Shown here piece by piece: positions 1,571 through 38,237 of a stretch of 64,000 bases of DNA. Made by a program: the position numbers and the translations under genes. Every line of letters starts with the position of its first letter. Positions within the stretch are counted from its first letter, which is position 1. Below the pieces are notes generated by a model. That model did no database searches. It was not told where the DNA came from and worked only from the letters and a program-made list of their open reading frames with translations. The stretch comes from a virus: positions 1 to 64,000 of IMG/VR virus record IMGVR_UViG_3300021399_000145; one strand, given 5' to 3'.

Positions 1571-3346
1571 ATGAACGAGCATAATAAGTTAGTTATGGCT
1601 AACGTAATCTCTGGCGTAGAAACTGGTGGTCAGAGATACGGATACGGAAGATGGAATGACTACACAAGACCTTACAAAAACACAAGCGGCGAACATACTT
1701 GTACACTCGGTGCTTTTCAATTTTACGGCGGAGAAGCAAGAGAATTATGTAATTTAATTTTCAATACCGACAAAGCATTGTTTAGAAAAATTGATACATG
1801 TTCGCCAAGCATTGAATCCATGTTGGGTAAAGATTGGGTTGGTATGCGTTGGAATCCGTCTTCTTCTCAGGCGGCTACACTCTCCGCTTTGATTTCTACG
1901 GATGTGGGTATTAAATGTCAGAAAGAATTATTTGTAGAGAAACAATTGAACGCATATGTTAAGCGGGCTATTGAGTACGGCGTAAAAGACGTAAAGGCGC
2001 AGATGATGTGGGTCGAAATACAGCATTTAGGCGGCGGCAACGCCCCGAAGAGAATCTTTGCGCGTTGTAATGGAAACTACTCTGTAGACCATATACTTGA
2101 TTGTTTAAATCCGAGATATGCGGATTACAACAGATATAGTAATCCAGTTGAAGCAAGAATCTTCTGGACTCGACATGTATGTTGTGCAACGTGGATTAAG
2201 CAATATGCACAAAATGAGGATGGTAGCCAAACTGGAAGTGTTGAGTTAAAAGTTGGTTCGTCTGGAAACGATGTAAAGAAATTACAGGAAAATCTTATGC
2301 TTGTCGGTTTATGCGATTGCGAAGATTATAGTTATGTTAGCAGATTTGTTGATGGTCAATTTGGAAATAATACAAAGAAATCTGTTATTGCTTTACAGAA
2401 AATTAGCGGACTTGAGCAAGACGGTATTTATGGCGAGAAATCAGCAAAGGCACTCGATAAATTAGTAAAGGTAGCTAAAGAATCTAGTGTGAATTTCACG
2501 TCAGTAGAGTTCTTAGCTAATGCAAAAAAGATATCTGATTTTGTAAGGAAGAATGGATTTAAATATGGGAATGCCGCTTTCTTACCCTCTCTTTATTATC
2601 CAAATGAAAAATATGTATCTTGCGACAGATTTGTCGATATGGTTCTTTGGGAGTCTGGTTTAAAGAATGTCGGTAATAGAAATGTTGGTAATTTAGAATC
2701 TTATTTCAAAAGTATTAATTGTAAGAAAATAACGAAGAAATCTGATGTTGCCGCAGGAGATATCATATTCTTTGACGGGCATATTTTTATTCTTGGAAAT
2801 AAAAAGGGAAATCTATATGAAAGATATGATTGCGGAACTAATGCGAGAATACAGAGTAATCAGCCATTCGTAGAAGGTATTGATGGCTTTATTTTTGCGT
2901 ACAGACTTCCGTTTAAGACCAATAGCGGAACAAAAGATTCAACAGAAACAAGACTTGTTAAGAGCGGTCAGACTCACCTTAATAACTACATTGGGGCGAA
3001 ATTAGAGGTTGACGGTATCTATGGCAATAATACTAGGCGTGCATTTATAAAAGCTCTACAAACGGCGTTAAACAATGATTACAAGTGTAATTTAGAAGTT
3101 AACGGCGAGTGGAATAAGAATCTGGAAACCGCACTTAAAAAGTATTATGTATCCTTGAATCATAATAAATCTAATGTAACATTGGTTCTGGCGATTGGTC
3201 TTTATATTAACAAAATTGAACCTTATGGATTAACAATGAGCGATAAGCTTATTAATGCCGTTAAACAATATCAGAAGAAATATAATCTTGAAGTTGATGG
3301 TATTGCGGGAATCGGTACATTCAAATCTTTAGCAACTATTAAATAA
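1571..3346 (+). CDS. Multidomain cell-wall hydrolase (NlpC/P60-like Cys/His region) with three PG_binding_1 repeats
   Basis: Three repeats match the PG_binding_1 signature (DGqFG..T..av..fQ, EVDGIYG..T..A, LEVDGIAGigT). A Cys...His pair (VSCDRF ... DGHIFI) is typical of NlpC/P60/CHAP amidases. Confidence 0.6.
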   Translation: MNEHNKLVMANVISGVETGGQRYGYGRWNDYTRPYKNTSGEHTCTLGAFQFYGGEARELCNLIFNTDKALFRKIDTCSPSIESMLGKDWVGMRWNPSSSQAATLSALISTDVGIKCQKELFVEKQLNAYVKRAIEYGVKDVKAQMMWVEIQHLGGGNAPKRIFARCNGNYSVDHILDCLNPRYADYNRYSNPVEARIFWTRHVCCATWIKQYAQNEDGSQTGSVELKVGSSGNDVKKLQENLMLVGLCDCEDYSYVSRFVDGQFGNNTKKSVIALQKISGLEQDGIYGEKSAKALDKLVKVAKESSVNFTSVEFLANAKKISDFVRKNGFKYGNAAFLPSLYYPNEKYVSCDRFVDMVLWESGLKNVGNRNVGNLESYFKSINCKKITKKSDVAAGDIIFFDGHIFILGNKKGNLYERYDCGTNARIQSNQPFVEGIDGFIFAYRLPFKTNSGTKDSTETRLVKSGQTHLNNYIGAKLEVDGIYGNNTRRAFIKALQTALNNDYKCNLEVNGEWNKNLETALKKYYVSLNHNKSNVTLVLAIGLYINKIEPYGLTMSDKLINAVKQYQKKYNLEVDGIAGIGTFKSLATIK

Positions 3347-3387: not shown

Positions 3388-4590
3388 ATGGGAAGTATTT
3401 ATAATATTATCAAGAAAGAAAGAGAGTATGCTAGTATTCCGTATACAGAAGTTGGCAGTTCTAATAACCAGAAATTTAGTACGATTGTTGACAATGCGGG
3501 ACTTATGGGTTGTCAAAATCAGCCGTGGTGTGCAACGTATCAATTTGCGATGGAGCTTGAAGAGTTTGGGAAGGCACAGGCTTTAAGAAATTGGAATATG
3601 ACAGCAAGTAATTACTGCGGATATAGTGTATTTGAAACCCGTGATAAATTTAGGGCGGCGGGAAAAACTGGTAGTATACCTAAAATCGGTGCGCTTGTAA
3701 TCTTTAGCCAATCTCATATTGGAAGAGTTTTATCTATTAATGAAAGCAATAGAACATTTGAATGCGGAGAAGGTAATACGTCTAATATTCAGTATGACAG
3801 AAATGGAAATACCTGTGCGGTCAAGACGTATAGTTGGAGTAATTCAAGAATAGTATGCTTCTGTTATATCGACTATGACACAAATAAAGATTATCTTTCT
3901 ATTGGCGATACTGGAAGCAAGGTGAAAGACATGCAGACAAAACTTATTGCTTGTGGATTTTCTTGTGGCAGTTATGGCGCGGATGGCGATTTTGGAAGTT
4001 CTACGGAAAATGCTGTTAAAGAGTTTCAGAAGAAAGTCGGTATTGAGGTCGATGGTCAGTTTGGAAAACAGTCTAGCGCGAAACTCGAAGAGCTTTACAA
4101 GAAAGTCAGTAAGAAAGAAACTGGCGGAAAAACAGAAGATATAAAGAAGGTTGACGGAAGCGCAAATGTAAAGAAGGGTCAGCAATATCTCAATGATACA
4201 TATTCTACTACGATTATTGCGGCTAACAAACACAGAATTGCCGTTGATGGCGTTTATGGCGGAGAGTCTAGGAACGCTACTGTCGCAGTGTGGAAATTTA
4301 TTGCGAATAACAAGTTTGGCGCAAATCTCACTATATCGAACGTAAACTTCTTAGGTGCTTGCAAAGCTGTCGCAAGTAAAATGTTTATCCAGTCTGGCGA
4401 TATCAAAGATGAAGTATATCTTCTCAAATTTGTTCTTTCTGGCTTTGGGTATTATAACGGAACTATGAACCGCACATTTGATGATGGTTTAAAGAAAGCT
4501 GTTAAGGCTTGGCAGACTAAACATAATCTTGATGTTGACGGTATATGTGGAGCGGATACGTGGTATTCTCTCTTTAACGATTTAGATTAA
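3388..4590 (+). CDS. Endolysin: N-terminal CHAP amidase/peptidase plus three PG_binding_1 repeats
   Basis: CHAP-like Cys (GCQNQPWCATYQ) and His (FSQSHIGRV). The three C-terminal repeats each carry a DG.FG/DGVYG/DGICG motif typical of the peptidoglycan-binding domain. Confidence 0.7.
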   Translation: MGSIYNIIKKEREYASIPYTEVGSSNNQKFSTIVDNAGLMGCQNQPWCATYQFAMELEEFGKAQALRNWNMTASNYCGYSVFETRDKFRAAGKTGSIPKIGALVIFSQSHIGRVLSINESNRTFECGEGNTSNIQYDRNGNTCAVKTYSWSNSRIVCFCYIDYDTNKDYLSIGDTGSKVKDMQTKLIACGFSCGSYGADGDFGSSTENAVKEFQKKVGIEVDGQFGKQSSAKLEELYKKVSKKETGGKTEDIKKVDGSANVKKGQQYLNDTYSTTIIAANKHRIAVDGVYGGESRNATVAVWKFIANNKFGANLTISNVNFLGACKAVASKMFIQSGDIKDEVYLLKFVLSGFGYYNGTMNRTFDDGLKKAVKAWQTKHNLDVDGICGADTWYSLFNDLD

Positions 4591-31433: not shown

Positions 31434-31508
31434 TTGTGAGTTCGGGACTCGAACCCGAAACCTTTGGTTTATAAGACCACTGCGCTCACCTAGTTGCGCC
31501 AACTCACA
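31434..31508 (-). tRNA. tRNA, probable anticodon UAU (Ile, AUA decoder); 75 nt
   Basis: Folded manually: acceptor TGTGAGT/ACTCACA 7 bp, D-stem GCGC/GCGC, T-arm TCGGG-TTCGAGT-CCCGA, anticodon loop CTTATAA. The anticodon stem has a G:A mismatch at position 27:43. Confidence 0.55.
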
Positions 31509-31513
31509 ATAAG

Positions 31514-31585
31514 CAGGGGTAGTTGGATTCGAACCAACGAATACAGCAGTCAAAGTGCTGTGCCTTACCGCTTGGCGATACCCCT
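31514..31585 (-). tRNA. tRNA-Gln (anticodon UUG); 72 nt
   Basis: Acceptor AGGGGTA/TACCCCT, T-arm GTTGG-TTCGAAT-CCAAC, anticodon stem CAGCA/TGCTG with loop CTTTGAC. Confidence 0.7.
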
Positions 31586-31700
31586 AATTTTATTATACTG
31601 TGCCTTTCGCAATAAATGATTTCGTGACGCATCACTACTTTCCACACTTCCGTAAAAGCTGTCTTTCACCGTCAATCCGTAAATTTCGGAGGGCATTTAT

Positions 31701-32498
31701 TTATTCTTCTACCAATTTGATAAATTTTGCTGTACCACTATTTAAATCTTCGAAAGATTCAAATTTTCTTCCGTCCGTCGGTCGTGTATCTCCATCATCA
31801 TCTATGAGTTTGCCGTCGGAAATTTCATAAATCTTTCCAAGTGTGTATCCTTCGCCTTCTTTTGTGCAAACAACCTTCATATTAAACTTTTTATTGTGAA
31901 TCTCTTTATCCTTTGATTCAGTGTATAAATCGAAGCAATTGCAATCTACCCACCAGTAATCACAACAATCATCTTCTTTATACACCTTCATTTCACATTT
32001 GAATTCTGGTGTCGTTCTAATACTTATTTCTGAAACAACACCAATCCAACCTTTATTTGTTATAGCGTAATGATTCTTGTCATTACCTATAACTTTATCT
32101 CCAACAGTGAATCCTAAAACAAGGCGACTGAAAGCGATGATTGCACCAGTTTTAAAATCATACTTATCCTTTGTGTTACACCTTACTGTACACTTTTCAT
32201 TTGTGTTTTTATTAAGAGCGGTGACAACGCGTTCATCACTGTAAATTACAATAGATTCCTTCTTAAGCTCTTTACTCATAGCACGTTCATCCCAAGTCCA
32301 ATGATCCCCATTCTTTAATTTAATACAGTAACCATTTGAAATATTATCTATACCAGTAATCTCCGCCATTTCTCCAACATAATCTTCCATTGGAGAGTAT
32401 GGAATCCAACCGCCCGCAAAATTTGGAATTTTAGAACCATTAAGTAAATATACATTATCACCAACTTTAAACTTACCAGTAAACTTTTCTTCTTTCAT
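31701..32498 (-). CDS. Hypothetical protein with internal repeats (start reassigned to MKEEKF to avoid the tRNA-like element)
   Basis: The N-terminal 29 codons of the ORF-track ORF read through the tRNA-like element. The internal ATG lies just downstream of it. Confidence 0.4.
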   Translation of the reverse strand: MKEEKFTGKFKVGDNVYLLNGSKIPNFAGGWIPYSPMEDYVGEMAEITGIDNISNGYCIKLKNGDHWTWDERAMSKELKKESIVIYSDERVVTALNKNTNEKCTVRCNTKDKYDFKTGAIIAFSRLVLGFTVGDKVIGNDKNHYAITNKGWIGVVSEISIRTTPEFKCEMKVYKEDDCCDYWWVDCNCFDLYTESKDKEIHNKKFNMKVVCTKEGEGYTLGKIYEISDGKLIDDDGDTRPTDGRKFESFEDLNSGTAKFIKLVEE

Positions 32499-32529
32499 TT
32501 TAAAACCCTTTTTATTATTTTTAAATATT

Positions 32530-32605
32530 GGGGCGGCGGGACTCGAACCCGCACCACGGAACTGTCTTACCGCGCTCTTCCACACTGGTTAAGCTACACC
32601 CCTTA
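32530..32605 (-). pseudogene. Degenerate tRNA-like element (canonical T-arm and acceptor 3' strand, non-canonical anticodon arm)
   Basis: GTGCGGG-TTCGAGT-CCCGC-CGCCCCA at the 3' side and GGGGTG-TA-GCTT... at the 5' side fold as tRNA. The middle gives only a 16-nt arm with a 6-nt loop. This may be a pseudo-tRNA or may reflect a sequence error. Confidence 0.3.
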
Positions 32606-32890
32606 CTGGCGACCCCCTTGTACTTCGGGAATACTTTAATGCTCATTAACACACCAGTCTTATATACGTTTGCGAATATCACCATTCATATCTCACAATA
32701 AATCAACCGTTTCGAACCAGTTGAAACGCATACGTTTTCGCAAGTCTCACGCACGAAGCATTATCAGTTTGCGCGAAGATAATGCTATATTAACTTGCGA
32801 AACGCTACCGAAACATTTGAAGTTTCTTTAATCACAGCCTTTCGCCGTAGTAGCGCGGAGGGCAATTTGTCAACAAACAAAATTACCGAA

Positions 32891-32973
32891 TGCGGGTAGT
32901 GGGATTCGAACCCACACGGTATATAACCAAAGGATTTTAAGTCCTTTGCGTCTGCCAGTTCCACCATACCCGC
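32891..32973 (-). tRNA. tRNA-Leu (anticodon UAA), type II with long variable arm; 83 nt
   Basis: Acceptor GCGGGTA/TACCCGC, anticodon stem AAGGA/TCCTT with loop CTTAAAA, variable stem GGT-TATAT-ACC, T-arm GTGGG-TTCGAAT-CCCAC. Confidence 0.7.
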
Positions 32974-33199: not shown

Positions 33200-33736
33200 T
33201 CAATTTTTTTCATCTGTTGAGCCGATTCCGCCTTTTCTCTCGCCAGAAGCCGAATCATTGTCTGTTGTTAAGTAAGGAATAAATATGCCCTGAGCATAAC
33301 CTTTTCCAGTTTCTAATAAGAACTCTTTATTACCGTCATTGATTAGCTTAATAAAGATATGTCCTTCATTCTGTTCATTATTATAATAGTCAGCGTCAAT
33401 AATCCCCATTGTATTGGCAAGCATTACCTTATATTTAAAGCCAATACTGCTTCTCGGCAAAATACCAAGGAAAGTCCCGGTATGAACGCCATCCATACGT
33501 ACTTTTATGCCAGTTGGGATAACTAAGCTCTCTCCGCTAGGAAAACTCGTATTTTCGAACTGCCAAATGAAGTCATATCCGGCAGATTGCACAGTTTTTC
33601 GCTCTGGAATGGCTATTTTTTTGTAACTTTTGACGATTTTTTCTCTTATTAAATTTGAATTTAATCGGTGCTCCCCAAAAGCCATTATACACCCCTCTGC
33701 ATACTTGTCAAAAGACACTTTTTCAAACCTAATCAT
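33200..33736 (-). CDS. dut: dUTP diphosphatase (dUTPase family)
   Basis: All five dUTPase motifs are present: SAGYDF, LPRSSIG, GIIDADYY, GYAQGIF and RKGGIGSTD. Confidence 0.75.
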   Translation of the reverse strand: MIRFEKVSFDKYAEGCIMAFGEHRLNSNLIREKIVKSYKKIAIPERKTVQSAGYDFIWQFENTSFPSGESLVIPTGIKVRMDGVHTGTFLGILPRSSIGFKYKVMLANTMGIIDADYYNNEQNEGHIFIKLINDGNKEFLLETGKGYAQGIFIPYLTTDNDSASGERKGGIGSTDEKN

Positions 33737-33753
33737 GAAATATCCTCCTAAAA

Positions 33754-34488
33754 TTAATCAGTCTGAATACTAAGAATGAATTCTTTAGTGAACCACGGCA
33801 TCATTTTCTCTAACTGCTCCTGTATAGATTCAGCAAGCTCTTTAACTTCTGGATTTGCTGTGCTATTTGCGTTACGCTCCCTGTATACATGCGCCCACTC
33901 AGTAAGATTGACTTTAAATATGAAAGAACTGGGTATGCTCTCCATATATAAACCGCGCTTTACATCTTTATTATTCTTTAAATCGTCCAGAATGTAGCCG
34001 TTTACTGTTTTAACATATGTTTTACCATTCACAATGACAGAAGTAGGTAATTCAATTTTAAACCTTTCGCAAACTGCATCGGTCGGGATAATTTTTTCTT
34101 TATAATAATCTGACATTTCGCCAGAAGAGAAATTTGCTAACCTTGTACTGGCTCTAATAATCCTATTGTCGAATCGTTTCGCGTGACTATCCCAATCATC
34201 TTGCCCCGCCCTATGGATATCTTTTACTGTCACAGACAAATCAACAAAACGCAACATTGTGGAATGTATTCTTCCCCACTTGCAGAGTTTCTTCATATAA
34301 TTATCAAATTCGTTTCTATCCACTTCATACGCATAGTCAGCTTCATACTTTCCATTATAGGCATTTGTACAGCTATAAACCAAATCTCGTATATTCTCTT
34401 CCTTGTCTCGCGTCCATGAACGTTTAGAAAAATACATTGACGTTATAGCATCATCAATTCCAGAAATTTTATTTAAATACACATTCAT
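33754..34488 (-). CDS. ThyX-like protein (flavin-dependent thymidylate synthase family, tentative)
   Basis: IHRAGQDDWDS resembles the ThyX RHR-x7-S signature with the first Arg replaced. It is about 240 aa and sits in the nucleotide-metabolism block. Confidence 0.3.
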   Translation of the reverse strand: MNVYLNKISGIDDAITSMYFSKRSWTRDKEENIRDLVYSCTNAYNGKYEADYAYEVDRNEFDNYMKKLCKWGRIHSTMLRFVDLSVTVKDIHRAGQDDWDSHAKRFDNRIIRASTRLANFSSGEMSDYYKEKIIPTDAVCERFKIELPTSVIVNGKTYVKTVNGYILDDLKNNKDVKRGLYMESIPSSFIFKVNLTEWAHVYRERNANSTANPEVKELAESIQEQLEKMMPWFTKEFILSIQTD

Positions 34489-34510
34489 TTAATTGAATTC
34501 CTCTCTATAA

Positions 34511-35092
34511 TCATTCATTTAATAACTCTTTTTTCACAGTCTCGATACTTTTGAGCGGCAAACAAGACATTTCTTCAACAATTCTATCTGTATTATAATC
34601 ATGTTTTAAAAATCTATATGTTATATTTTCCAACTGTTTTAAGGTATCGCCGTAAATAACTTTATACATTTTTTGGTTTGTATTTTTATTATTAAGTCCG
34701 CCGCGAGACTCTATATAACTTCCGATTTTAATATAATCAATGCAAACGTTATCATAAAATATACTAAATTTAGATATATTACAACTACCACTATATATAC
34801 AAACTTTATATCCGCGCTTCTTTACAATTTTGCATAAATTTAATAATTCATTTAAGTTTTGGTCGCCACCCATAAAGCATACACAAGTGATAAGCGAGTT
34901 ATATTTATCTATTAGTTTATCCAAATCATCAGAAATATAATTACCTGTATATTCCCAAAGATATTTTGAGTGGCAACCCTTACATTTGTAAGGGCAACCA
35001 CTTATATTAATAGCAAGAGAAATTTCATCTGGTACTTCTTCGCAAACTATAGCATAGCTAACATATTTAAGTTTCTGTTTCTGCATTATCAC
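34511..35092 (-). CDS. nrdG: Anaerobic ribonucleotide reductase activating protein (radical SAM)
   Basis: CPYKCKGC is a CxxxCxxC radical-SAM motif. It lies immediately downstream of nrdD and overlaps it by 26 nt. Confidence 0.7.
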   Translation of the reverse strand: MIMQKQKLKYVSYAIVCEEVPDEISLAINISGCPYKCKGCHSKYLWEYTGNYISDDLDKLIDKYNSLITCVCFMGGDQNLNELLNLCKIVKKRGYKVCIYSGSCNISKFSIFYDNVCIDYIKIGSYIESRGGLNNKNTNQKMYKVIYGDTLKQLENITYRFLKHDYNTDRIVEEMSCLPLKSIETVKKELLNE

Positions 35093-35537
35093 TCCAATAA
35101 TAACGCTTATGTTCTTCTTCCTGTCTCTTTTCGGAGAACTTTGATACGCGCTTTAAATAACCGATAACTCTTGTTGCATAATCAACATTCTCAGAGCCGC
35201 AAACAGGACACTCAGAGTATCTATGCTTGCTAATATTCCCGCAATCATTACAGATTGTATTCGGTACATTAAACGTAAAATATGAACAGCCAGTCTTAAT
35301 AGCTACGTTCATTAAGTGACGATACTGTTCTTTGCTCAAATGTTCTTGCAGATTCGCATGAAGCGCAGAGCCACCATCGAGCCACTTAGTTGTCTTATCG
35401 CCGTGAAGAATAAATTTATCTAACAGCGAACAAGTTTCGTCTTCTGGCTTATAGAAATATGAATTATAGCAATCGCGAGGTGAGAAGTATCCGTCTTCCT
35501 TATCCCACTTTGCATTTTTTACGCCGAGATTTTCAGC
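35067..35537 (-). CDS. nrdD: Anaerobic ribonucleoside-triphosphate reductase NrdD, exon 2 (C-terminal Zn ribbon plus glycyl-radical motif)
   Basis: CNDC...CPVCGS Zn ribbon followed by RVIGYL, which is the glycyl-radical loop. The 22 ORF-track codons upstream of AENLG are read-through of the intervening sequence. Confidence 0.7.
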   Translation of the reverse strand, partial: AENLGVKNAKWDKEDGYFSPRDCYNSYFYKPEDETCSLLDKFILHGDKTTKWLDGGSALHANLQEHLSKEQYRHLMNVAIKTGCSYFTFNVPNTICNDCGNISKHRYSECPVCGSENVDYATRVIGYLKRVSKFSEKRQEEEHKRYYWSDNAETET

Positions 35538-35785
35538 CAATCTGTTACTTTTATGACCAGTTAATAACTGGCGGTCAAGGTTCTTCGACCCCAACTCATG
35601 CATTTCATTTAAGGTTATTGTGCATGTTCAGACTATCACATCCCCATCGAAATGGAGTCCTCTTATTTAGTCGTTCACGGTGTATTTAAACTTCCGCCCT
35701 GTTGTCCACCTCTGGATTTCCAAGTCAATTAAAGAGGATTGCTATAGCGGATTATGTATTATGCCGCTAAATGCCCACATAGTTT
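35538..35785 (-). other. Candidate group I intron (about 248 nt) interrupting nrdD
   Basis: The exon-1 end GUGCCU can pair with intron GGGCAU 10-15 nt downstream, giving a P1 helix with a U:G at the splice site. The intron ends in G. Joining the flanks gives an in-frame TEYVP/AENLGVKNA. Confidence 0.45.
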
Positions 35786-37180
35786 AGGCACGTACTCAGT
35801 ATTAAACATGTAATGTTCAGTTTTTGCCGCTTTATTCTCTTCGTAAATTGGTTTTAAGCAACGTGTACAGTATTCGAAATACTCTTCGTTTGGCGAGATA
35901 TCAATACCTAAGAATTCCGCACCCTCGACAAGTCCGTTAATACCAACTGTCAAGAATTGCTTATCCATATTGATGAATCCTGCGTCATAAATCGGAAGCA
36001 TCTTTGTTTTCAAGAAATCACGCAGATTATCATCATAAGCGATTTGATACTTGTGTACTAATCTCACCTGTTCTCTGATTTTGCTATCTAAATAGTTATA
36101 AAACTCTTCTTTATCTCTCCACTCCTTATACTTATATGCGTCCTGTACAAGTCGATTGAAGTTAATTGTGATAACACTCTTGCTACCTGTTGATACGCCG
36201 CCCGCTCCGAGAGTATACGAGAATGTATTATCTTGCAGTTCGTTTCTAAGTCTGCAACAGCTCGCCAACGAATCAACTGAATTACTACGATACATAAAGA
36301 ACGAATGTCCTTTAGCCCACATTTCTGCGACAAAATCGGCAAATTCTTTATCTACATAATCAACTCCATCATCTAAAAGATTTACTGTTTCAACAGGGAA
36401 AGTGAGAATTGTTCTCAGACGTTCTCTATTGAACCAATTCATAAACTTTTTCTGTAACCACAGCACTGATTCATACTGTGGTTCTGTGCCATCTGGGAAT
36501 ACAAAATCCTCGAAGATACTTTCAAAGTACGGTCTGTCAAAATAAGCGATATTCCAAAATACGCTCTGGTAGTTTCTCGCCGCCGCAGGTTGATTTAAAC
36601 TGTAAACAACTTCTTGAAAACACTGACTAATTACACTATCAATATCTCTGCGTCTTTTTGACAAATCAACAACTTCATTGCTTCTTAAATAATAGTCATC
36701 TCCGTATTCTTTGCGGATAAAGTAATCCATATAAGTTAAAAACTCTGGCGTACTTACCGCACCTGCAAACTGCGATGCAACCGCAAAAACAAGATTCACG
36801 AATGACCCGCAAAATGACTGTAAATTCTTCGGCGGTTCTGAAATGCCGCCAATATTTTTCATCCCTTTAAACAAATACGGATACATTGTGATGCTAACGC
36901 AGTAGGGGAAAATACTTGTTTCATCATGTTTGTAGATTTGATGTTTATCTAACTGCTCAATGTATTTTTCTGCTACTTCTTCGCCAAATAATTCCTTCTG
37001 CTTGTCATACATTAATGTACGGTTAATACCAATCATTAACTTTTTCGGAATCTCACCAGTTAAGGTTGTAATATTTTTGTTTTCTACATTAGCGTTCGAA
37101 TCTACCGCGCTACCAGTTGCGGCGTTCGATGCTCTCGTATACTTCTTAATAAATTTTATATCGCTATCATACCTCTTCAA
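35786..37180 (-). CDS. nrdD: Anaerobic ribonucleoside-triphosphate reductase NrdD, exon 1
   Basis: SCCRLRN, GAGGVSTGS and TFPV are class III RNR motifs. The ORF-track ORF continues 8 codons into the intervening sequence before its stop. Confidence 0.75.
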
Positions 37181-37181
37181 A

Positions 37182-37394
37182 TCAATTTTTTACCTCCACA
37201 TTATTCAGCCATTTAACCGCTTCGGGAAATGTCATTACTTTATTGTCTACTTCTAACAACGGTACGGTTTGGAATCCGAGTTTCCGCGCCTCATTAACAT
37301 CGGTAGTTGACTCGTAATCGAGTCCGAGACTATCCATTTTTTCCTTAATGAATTCACACTTAGGACAGCCAACATTAGAGTAAAGTTTAATCAT
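37182..37394 (-). CDS. nrdH: Glutaredoxin-like NrdH-redoxin
   Basis: CPKC active site in a 70-aa thioredoxin-fold-sized protein. Confidence 0.65.
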   Translation of the reverse strand: MIKLYSNVGCPKCEFIKEKMDSLGLDYESTTDVNEARKLGFQTVPLLEVDNKVMTFPEAVKWLNNVEVKN

Positions 37395-37478
37395 TCACAT
37401 CTCTCCTTTATTATTTAGTAAACAACTATTTGAAATTCGGCAGTTTTAAATTTTGCCGAAATTCACACAATTCCACGA

Positions 37479-38237
37479 TTATATTATTCTGATAATTTTT
37501 TCATATAAAATATTAAATTTACCGAATATTTGTTTTTCGCAATGATAATGACCGCAATACCATTTATTAAACTTTAAACCGTTGATTAGTAGTAAATCAT
37601 TAAAATATTGTGTTAAGCAATCTCCGTCCATACATCCTATATAAACAGAAACGTCCTGTGGAAGACAATGTGTTATAACATAATCCACTTCGTAATTAAC
37701 GTCTTCAAGCGATTGTATACCGCGCTTCATTTCTTCCTCTGATGGAAGTTCCTCTTCCCACCACGAAACGCCTTTAACGCGGAACATCTTATTATGTTTT
37801 CGCCACGAATTATAAACTCTTTTAAATTCTTCTTTGGTTTCAAATTCCTTCGGGTCTAAAATTCCATCTTGAATATCATGCGAACTTGCGCCGCCGAACG
37901 CGAAAAACTTTTTGCCGCAAAGATTGAAAACATAACCGCGCATCAGGTGATAAATGTTATCAGTTATCTTGTGCGCTTTCCCACCACAAAAATCAACAAC
38001 TGGAAACGTATTTAATAAATTGAAGCCTTCATGGTTGCCATCGACAAATAATGTCGTAAACGGCTTATCATTCAGCCAATCAAGCCAGTATTTTTCTTCT
38101 TTGGAGTTAGACCAAATTCCACCAAAATCGCCTAATATAATAACAAAATCATTTCTTGCCATTTCTTTTTGCTCTGGAAATATTGAAGTAGAAAATCTCC
38201 TAAAATCCCCGTGGCAATCTCCTGTAACGTATACCAT
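37479..38237 (-). CDS. Calcineurin-like metallophosphoesterase
   Basis: GDCHGD, ILGDFG and GNHE are metallophosphatase motifs I to III. Confidence 0.65.
   Translation of the reverse strand: MVYVTGDCHGDFRRFSTSIFPEQKEMARNDFVIILGDFGGIWSNSKEEKYWLDWLNDKPFTTLFVDGNHEGFNLLNTFPVVDFCGGKAHKITDNIYHLMRGYVFNLCGKKFFAFGGASSHDIQDGILDPKEFETKEEFKRVYNSWRKHNKMFRVKGVSWWEEELPSEEEMKRGIQSLEDVNYEVDYVITHCLPQDVSVYIGCMDGDCLTQYFNDLLLINGLKFNKWYCGHYHCEKQIFGKFNILYEKIIRII

Follow-up and report, generated by a model that had tools for sequence, protein, structure and literature searches.

A compact group I intron, probably self-splicing, in the anaerobic ribonucleotide reductase gene nrdD of a phage

An nrdD gene in two pieces

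The window analysed here, a stretch of 64,000 nucleotides (nt) from the IMG/VR virus record IMGVR_UViG_3300021399_000145 (positions 1 to 64,000), carries an nrdD gene, encoding the large subunit of the phage anaerobic ribonucleotide reductase (RNR). It is split on the minus strand by a 248-nt insert at 35538-35785, between the codons for ...TEYVP and AENLG.... A first reading made from the letters of the window (the sequence-only reading) had placed an insert of about this length here and proposed that it is a group I intron that splices itself. Its placement is confirmed by the open reading frames (ORFs) and by abutting Pfam matches. The parts of the gene are:

35786..37180, minus strand: nrdD exon 1, 1395 nt, 465 codons, ending ACU GAG UAC GUG CCU = TEYVP; Pfam NRDD 12-414, E 3.7e-59; from the ORF list
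35538..35785, minus strand: putative group I intron, 248 nt, without an endonuclease ORF; 176.7 bits on 35529-35742 with the family model R1 (see below), together with structure and exact joining of the exons
35067..35537, minus strand: nrdD exon 2, 471 nt, 156 codons plus stop, starting GCU GAA AAU = AEN; Pfam NRDD 415-561, E 1.7e-32

The ORF at 35759-37180 (minus strand, 473 amino acids) contains the NrdD motifs SCCRL, GAGGVSTGS and TFPV, and that at 35067-35603 (minus strand, 178 amino acids) the C-terminal CxxC...CxxC zinc ribbon and the glycyl-radical motif RVIGYL, all as the sequence-only reading had assigned them. Since the match to the Pfam NRDD profile ends at 414 in the first ORF (at ...TEYVP) and resumes at 415 in the second (from AENLG), the two pieces of NrdD abut and nothing is missing between them. 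Joined without the insert, the exons form a single ORF of 621 amino acids with the reading frame restored exactly, and the insert ends in G (35538), both of which had been claimed before. The alignment of the flanks to intact homologues that had been suggested as a check likewise found nothing missing: the spliced 621-amino-acid protein can be aligned without a break, and at a coverage of 97-98%, to many phage NrdDs whose genes are uninterrupted. The closest of them, 61.9% identical, is encoded on a human-gut phage contig (MT835470.1) that has no intron and passes straight through the site (...MFNTEFVP/AENLGVK...); this continuity marks the 248 nt as an insertion and the coding sequence as complete. 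In alleles like that of MT835470.1, the empty site reads ...GAAUUUGUUCCA/GCAGAGAACCUU.... A megablast search of the gene against GenBank phages returned no match, and the window phage is without a close sequenced relative, its nearest NrdD being the one at 61.9%. Wholly within 35538-35785, no sense-strand ORF of 30 or more amino acids was found.

Fold of the insert and covariation among its relatives

The helices that we assign to the insert are listed below, with positions within the intron in brackets; relatives are referred to by locus labels of the form L149.

35771..35791, minus strand: P1, exon GUGCCU (35786-35791) with guide GGGCAU (intron 10-15 = 35771-35776), 9-nt loop, U·G at the 5' splice site
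35746..35769, minus strand: P2 hairpin UAGCGG/CCGCUA (17-40); 6 of 6 pairs changed on both sides, 100% paired; absent in L155
35732..35738, minus strand: P3 5' strand UCCUCUU (48-54); 7 of 7 pairs compensated
35677..35724, minus strand: P4-P5-P6 domain (62-109); from RNAalifold on 75 sequences and pair counts at the nrdD site
35668..35672, minus strand: P7 5' strand GACUA (114-118), inside the R-like GUGAACGACUAA; from covariation; same sequence in T4 sunY
35658..35664, minus strand: P3 3' strand AAGAGGA (122-128), 3 nt (AAU) past P7
35642..35657, minus strand: P8 hairpin CUCCAU-UUCG-AUGGGG (129-144); from fold, RNAalifold and pair counts
35631..35635, minus strand: P7 3' strand UAGUC (151-155), with J8/7 AUGUGA just before it; S-like element (GAUAGUCU)
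35597..35626, minus strand: P9 hairpin CAUGCA/UGCAUG (160-189); 5 of 6 pairs compensated, C-G closing pair unvarying (75-sequence alignment)
35575..35594, minus strand: P9.1 hairpin UUGGGGU-CGAAGA-ACCUUGA (192-211); from RNAalifold; wobble to Watson-Crick changes in L149 and L270
35557..35571, minus strand: P9.2 hairpin CCAGUU-AUU-AACUGG (215-229); its loop houses an HNH/AP2 ORF in relatives
35538..35556, minus strand: conserved 3' tail UCAUAAAAGUAACAGAUUG; terminal G = omega G at 35538; the same tail in the intron of mycobacteriophage BAKA stops at the published 3' splice site

Within the P4-P6 domain we distinguish P4 (CUUG/CAGG), an A-rich J4/5 (GAAA), J5/4 (CAA), P5 (UCCA/UGGA), P6 (GCGG/CCGU) and P6a (GU/AC). 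The P7 pairing spans AACGACUAA (intron 111-119) with GAUAGUCU (149-156), where the sequence-only reading had seen no canonical P7/R element on the sense strand; on this point it was wrong. P7 crosses P3 to form a pseudoknot, and the conserved group I core order P3-P4-P5-P6-P7-P3'-P8-P7' is present. A P9.0 pairing of UCUG with CAGA is conceivable in the nearly invariant tail. The minimum free energy (MFE) fold recovers P1, P2, P3 and P8, but its energy is unremarkable (z = -1.5) and the pseudoknot cannot appear in such a fold, and the case therefore rests on covariation with relatives.

Two sets of relatives were used for this purpose. Seventy-five compact family copies were aligned with plain MAFFT and passed to RNAalifold without guidance, which recovered P3, P4, P5, P6, P8, P9 and P9.1 and showed compensation in 28 of the 36 pairs; the covariance model R1 was built from the same alignment. 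On nine distinct ORF-less introns from the nrdD site, the P1-P8 structure including the P7 pseudoknot was imposed on the alignment. Since MAFFT misaligned the variable P9-P9.2 region of this set, its counts cover P1-P8 only, and those for P9 and P9.1 come from the 75 sequences. Among the nine, 99.2% of the cells are paired as against 40-49% in slid controls, and 27 of 44 pairs have changed on both sides, a value reached by none of 500 shuffles.

The splice-site U·G is present in all eight nrdD-site sequences aligned there, and at two positions P1 changes in step with the exon (G-C / C-G / A-U), giving the exon/guide combinations GUGCCU/GGGCAU, GUGCCU/GGGCAC, AUCCCU/GGGGAU and GUACCU/GGGUAC. 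In unrelated host genes, too, the guide matches its own exon, as in AACGGU/GCCGUU and AGUGGGU/GCUCACU. The P1 pairing with its U:G, which had been read directly from the window, is thus borne out, and its recurrence with compensating changes in independent introns of the same site places it beyond chance. For P7 the nine introns hold a single compensated change. As our first search pattern had fixed P7, further copies were fetched with a pattern confined to P4-P6; in these the closing pair of P7 is A-U, G-C or U-A, always compensated, and one copy has GAACA/UGUUC.

Distribution, mobility and maintenance of the intron family

A sensitive blastn search of the insert against GenBank phages matched two records, in one of which the match lies inside a gap of ~217 nt that separates two pieces of a P22-like coat protein gene, while in the other the core is placed after an HNH ORF. 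The exact pattern CGTGAACGACTAA-N15-45-GATAGTCT occurs on at least 119 IMG/VR contigs and in 29 prokaryote assemblies, where the cases examined proved to be prophage or structural genes of phages. A search with the 3' tail and, after it, the Ala-Glu-Asn exon gave no fewer than 25 loci whose intron occupies precisely this nrdD position, in genes whose NrdDs are from 99% down to 27.5% identical to that of the window. Elsewhere, downstream exons that start in the middle of a profile identify major head proteins (three families), ribonucleotide reductases (two types), tape measure and portal proteins as hosts, a spread that is typical of the habits of phage group I introns. An R1 scan of the window found no second family copy besides the one at 176.7 bits.

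Two family copies lie 0.3-2 kb apart on several viral contigs (L015, at 3125-3325 and 3658-3854, and L036, L028, L050, L005, L023, L031, L185 and L195), and some genes or neighbours have therefore been struck more than once by the family. In a sub-branch represented by L002 (1611-2429) and L253, an HNH ORF is located upstream of P3, in the P1/P2 region instead of P9.2, and the 3' part (…GGGUUCGAAUCC…) resembles a tRNA T-arm. Family introns were also found on contigs of metagenome-assembled genomes (MAGs) assigned to Nitrososphaeria / Nitrosopumilaceae (L243, L251, L257), Rickettsiales (L253) and Parachlamydiaceae (L261). Since the genes interrupted there belong to the phage major-capsid family of the IMG/VR loci, mis-binning of phage sequence is the probable explanation of these contigs, as opposed to group I introns in archaea.

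Close relatives, among them L175 and L135 (the latter with an exon-2 peptide identical to that of the window), and several other loci have at the nrdD site an intron of ~900 nt whose P9.2 loop houses an ORF of ~200 amino acids immediately ahead of the conserved tail. By Pfam these ORFs are HNH_3 plus AP2, at 19.7-23.9 bits, just below the curated cut-offs; HNH with AP2 is the usual pairing in phage intron endonucleases. Another variant at the same site encodes a TnsA-like nuclease with NUMOD3 in P9.2. HNH/AP2 carriers are L175, L135, L129/131/142, L133, L128/157 and L172, and TnsA-like/NUMOD3 carriers L168 and L169. Two unrelated kinds of endonuclease ORF in one P9.2 loop suggest repeated gain, loss or swapping of ORFs on one ribozyme scaffold. 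The window intron, which has no such ORF, is an endonuclease-less derivative of a mobile intron. The neighbouring window ORF at 37479-38237 is a metallophosphatase.

The copy in the window is shared by close relatives of the phage, for whose look-up the product of the adjacent gene served as query:

34511..35092, minus strand: nrdG (activating enzyme, radical SAM), overlapping the end of nrdD; Pfam Fer4_12 / Radical_SAM; context, outside the intron

With an NrdG query starting at ATG, two codons past GTG, the protein was found on 21 contigs from several samples. Of the six contigs shown, five have nrdD annotated as 473 + 178 amino acids or as the truncated end of that layout; L270, the remaining one, has the same intron at the site but a further split in exon 1. 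The intron is identical in four independent metagenome assemblies and shows three differences, all in loops, in a fifth. In a sixth there are seven, each of which sits in a loop or joining segment or leaves its base pair formed, with changes from U·G to C-G, G·U to A-U and U-A to U·G. Between the window and L149, exon 1 is 97.8% and exon 2 93.4% identical, the latter differing at 31 of its 471 nt and, in the encoded peptide, at just 6 of 157 residues, and the intron has seven differences, all of them in loops or from G·U to A-U. Throughout L149, L268 and L270, differences either lie in loops and joining segments or keep a pair as they change it from wobble to Watson-Crick or from Watson-Crick to wobble. 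Such fold-preserving substitutions in near relatives argue against a decaying pseudogene.

In L270, a Logan contig (SRR33322319) from a sister of the window phage, the additional interruption of nrdD exon 1 (~690-930 and 904-2829) consists of a second group I intron and a 641-amino-acid ORF with an Intein_splicing domain. This intron is of the classic T4/Twort type with P7.1/P7.2 (…GGUGCAACGACUAUUCCGAGAGGAAGUA…GAUAUAGUCUGAAC…) and scores 22.4 bits with R1, and it was not reported by the Rfam model Intron_gpI at E<=0.1. Exon 1 of the window has neither element.

The nrdD gene of the window belongs to a nucleotide-metabolism cassette at ~33200-38237 (minus strand) that comprises the metallophosphatase (37479-38237), a glutaredoxin/NrdH-like ORF of 70 amino acids (37182-37394), nrdD, and nrdG overlapping the nrdD stop. 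At the colinear locus L267, ThyX (Thy1) and a dUTPase come next after nrdG, from which we place their window counterparts at ~33754-34488 and 33200-33736. Just downstream of this block lies a cluster of four tRNAs (31434-32973, minus strand; Rfam tRNA 35.5-65.2 bits).

Interpretation, rivals and comparison with known introns

We consider it highly probable (about 0.9) that 35538-35785 (minus strand) is a compact, ORF-less group I self-splicing intron, situated where the conserved ...VP/AEN... of a phage nrdD passes from its Pro to its Ala codon. The core fold, the compensatory changes in relatives and the exact rejoining of the exons all support what the sequence-only reading had proposed. Sequence and comparison show that the primary transcript can fold into P1-P9.2 with the P3/P7 pseudoknot and that P1 presents the splice-site U·G to the core. 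By the mechanism established for group I introns, an external guanosine bound at the P7 G-C pair would attack the 5' splice site, whereupon the terminal G (35538) would occupy the guanosine site and the free 3'-OH of exon 1 would attack the 3' splice site. Ligation of GUGCCU to GCUGAA would yield a junction reading ...GAGUACGUGCCU/GCUGAAAAUCUC... and an mRNA for the intact 621-amino-acid NrdD. In relatives at the same site, the HNH/AP2 or TnsA-like/NUMOD3 ORFs would drive homing into empty alleles such as that of MT835470.1.

Four points weigh against this interpretation. The Rfam model RF00028 (Intron_gpI) does not match the insert, either at its gathering score (50 bits; whole window) or at E<=10 (35400-35900, 501 nt), E-values from R1 are rough owing to a shortened calibration, and P10 comprises at best 2 base pairs (G·U and C-G; exon 2 GC with the GU before the guide), too short and invariant for covariation. 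Lastly, G114-C155 in P7 is a candidate guanosine-binding pair by virtue of its position and invariance; it is unvarying in all nine nrdD-site introns, and an unvarying pair neither proves nor disproves function. No Rfam family of any kind matches the insert, and the relatives L001, L002 and L067 are unmatched by Intron_gpI even at E<=10. In the same run, the T4 nrdD (sunY) intron scored 105 bits, and the negative result is thus a property of this intron family and not a general insensitivity to phage introns. The ORF-less 265-nt intron in a minor tail gene of BAKA, for which splicing was shown by reverse transcription PCR (Pope et al. 2013, PMC3706429), reaches 28.6 bits and the intron in the capsid gene of LittleE 30.7 bits, both under the 50-bit threshold. 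As even the verified BAKA intron falls below it, the Rfam criterion is operational and not mechanistic. The Intron_gpI scan, which the sequence-only reading had offered as a check, came out negative and would have led to a wrong rejection, the model not recognising the family.

That reading had kept a fresh pseudogene as its alternative, in which the insertion is inert, nrdD was recently inactivated and the group I-like fold is a decaying, non-splicing remnant. The loss of the endonuclease ORF and the silence of the Rfam model would both fit such a history, but both exons are open and conserved, the nrdG gene overlapping exon 2 is intact and every helix is preserved in the window copy. It is further contradicted by the identity of the intron in four independent assemblies, by substitutions in L149, L268 and L270 that avoid or keep pairs, by the excess of nucleotide over residue changes in exon 2 (31/471 against 6/157 towards L149) and by occupancy of the same site down to 27.5% NrdD identity; we regard it as very improbable. 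Scarcely better placed, and by our estimate a shade less probable still, is a truly split gene whose fragments of 473 and 178 amino acids are translated apart and assemble into an active enzyme without splicing. The nrdA gene of Aeromonas phage Aeh1, split by mobE, reportedly gives an active enzyme assembled from fragments in this way without RNA splicing. Split yet functional phage RNR genes do exist (PMC3653736), and an in-frame ATG for the downstream ORF is available at 35603, within the insert. This ATG, however, sits in the P9 stem with no obvious ribosome-binding site, and in L067 and others the frames and run-on peptides vary while the RNA structure is kept. Separate translation would also leave the covarying group I fold, the exon-matched guide, the U at the exon end and the G at the insert end unexplained.

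That the insert might be an intervening element of another kind (a group II intron, an intein, a translational bypass element or a transposon remnant) was raised only because Intron_gpI was silent, and nothing specific speaks for it. An intein is at odds with a length of 248 nt, which is not a multiple of 3, and with in-frame stops. A group II intron would have to be far longer, and the insert has no reverse-transcriptase ORF, no features like domains V/VI and no Rfam family match, and 248 nt far exceeds known bypass gaps. The P1-P9 topology with its P3/P7 pseudoknot is specific to group I, and the covariation leaves this least probable of the alternatives effectively refuted.

If the insert is a group I intron, as we prefer to read it, the 473- and 178-amino-acid NRDD fragments called in every assembly of the phage should be merged in annotation into one NrdD of 621 amino acids, and the window phage should be scored as having a working anaerobic RNR. 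Beyond this case, a large family of phage introns that is clearly genuine goes undetected by the standard Rfam check; with the model blind to a real family, a negative Intron_gpI scan is no ground for calling split genes in viral metagenomes pseudogenes.

Assignment to a subgroup is less straightforward. The extra helices P7.1/P7.2 between P7 and P3' that define subgroup IA2 were not found, only AAU (3 nt) lying there, and for this reason we do not file the intron as IA2, though in the sequences of P7, J8/7 and P9 it comes nearest to it. The T4 introns of td, nrdB and sunY and that of Twort are members of IA2. One could speculate, although we consider it unlikely, that the family is a distinct, streamlined and unclassified branch of phage group I introns. 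Its traits are an IA2-like P7/J8/7/P9 core lacking P7.1/P7.2, a fixed UUGACUUGGA...ACARGGCG segment of P4 and a 3' tail AGUAACA(N)2-5G, and it is abundant in uncultivated phages yet invisible to RF00028. Were it such a branch, censuses and databases seeded by RF00028 would systematically under-count phage introns; the Rfam model was the seed for one group I intron database of recent date (PMC11835236), and a family unseen by that model may be under-represented in it.

Among known systems, the T4 nrdD intron (sunY; IA2, with I-TevII) shares the host gene with the window intron, namely that for the large subunit of a phage anaerobic RNR. Group I introns in phage RNR genes are a classical theme. 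Also shared with sunY are the P7 strands ACGACUA/UAGUCU, the layout J8/7-P7'-GAAC-P9 and the order of the core helices, and in a 15 kb T4 sequence R1 ranks the sunY core first (19.7 bits, a rough E of ~7e-4), with P3, P8, P7' and P9 in register. In contrast to the window intron, sunY has P7.1/P7.2 between P7 and P3', a P4-P7 segment of 111 nt (68 nt in R1) and a GIY-YIG ORF within a length of 1033 nt, whereas the window intron has 248 nt and no ORF. Insertion of the two at the same site was considered and ruled out, the T4 intron interrupting the gene at ~codon 178 and the window intron after codon 465 of 621; a BLAST comparison of T4 NrdD with the window NrdD gave no alignment beyond the C-terminal zinc ribbon. 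The window intron is a distant relative of the T4-type phage introns and would work as they do.

The BAKA intron is likewise a compact ORF-less phage intron; the exon before it closes with U and the intron itself with G. R1 matches it over its full length (31.9 bits, E ~2e-7, equally rough) with P3-P9.1 in register; it has the P9.1 motif GGCAGAAAUGACC common to many family members, and its AGUAACA...G/ tail reaches the published 3' splice site. It differs in being distant in sequence, in its GC-rich host, in a P8 region of 47 instead of 10 nt, in P7 (AGACUAA against CGACUAA) and in its host gene. The LittleE capsid intron is related to it.

Among RNR genes, nrdD is the one most often split in sequenced phages (PMC3653736), and the gut jumbo 'Jug' and crAss-like phages contain many small (~206 nt), mostly ORF-less group I introns, nrdD included, with metatranscriptome reads backing splicing for about half of those tested (PMC12880540, PMC7886860). 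The likeness to the latter, by description only, lies in uncultivated phages whose short introns split essential genes alongside HNH endonucleases and inteins, while relatives of the window phage are found on contigs of ~109-127 kb as opposed to 360-400 kb. The sequence-only reading was right in calling group I introns of phage nrdD genes a known phenomenon (PMC12880540, PMC3653736). Set beside these systems, the window intron is in our view real but ordinary, and what is mildly new is a large family of such introns that escapes the Rfam model.

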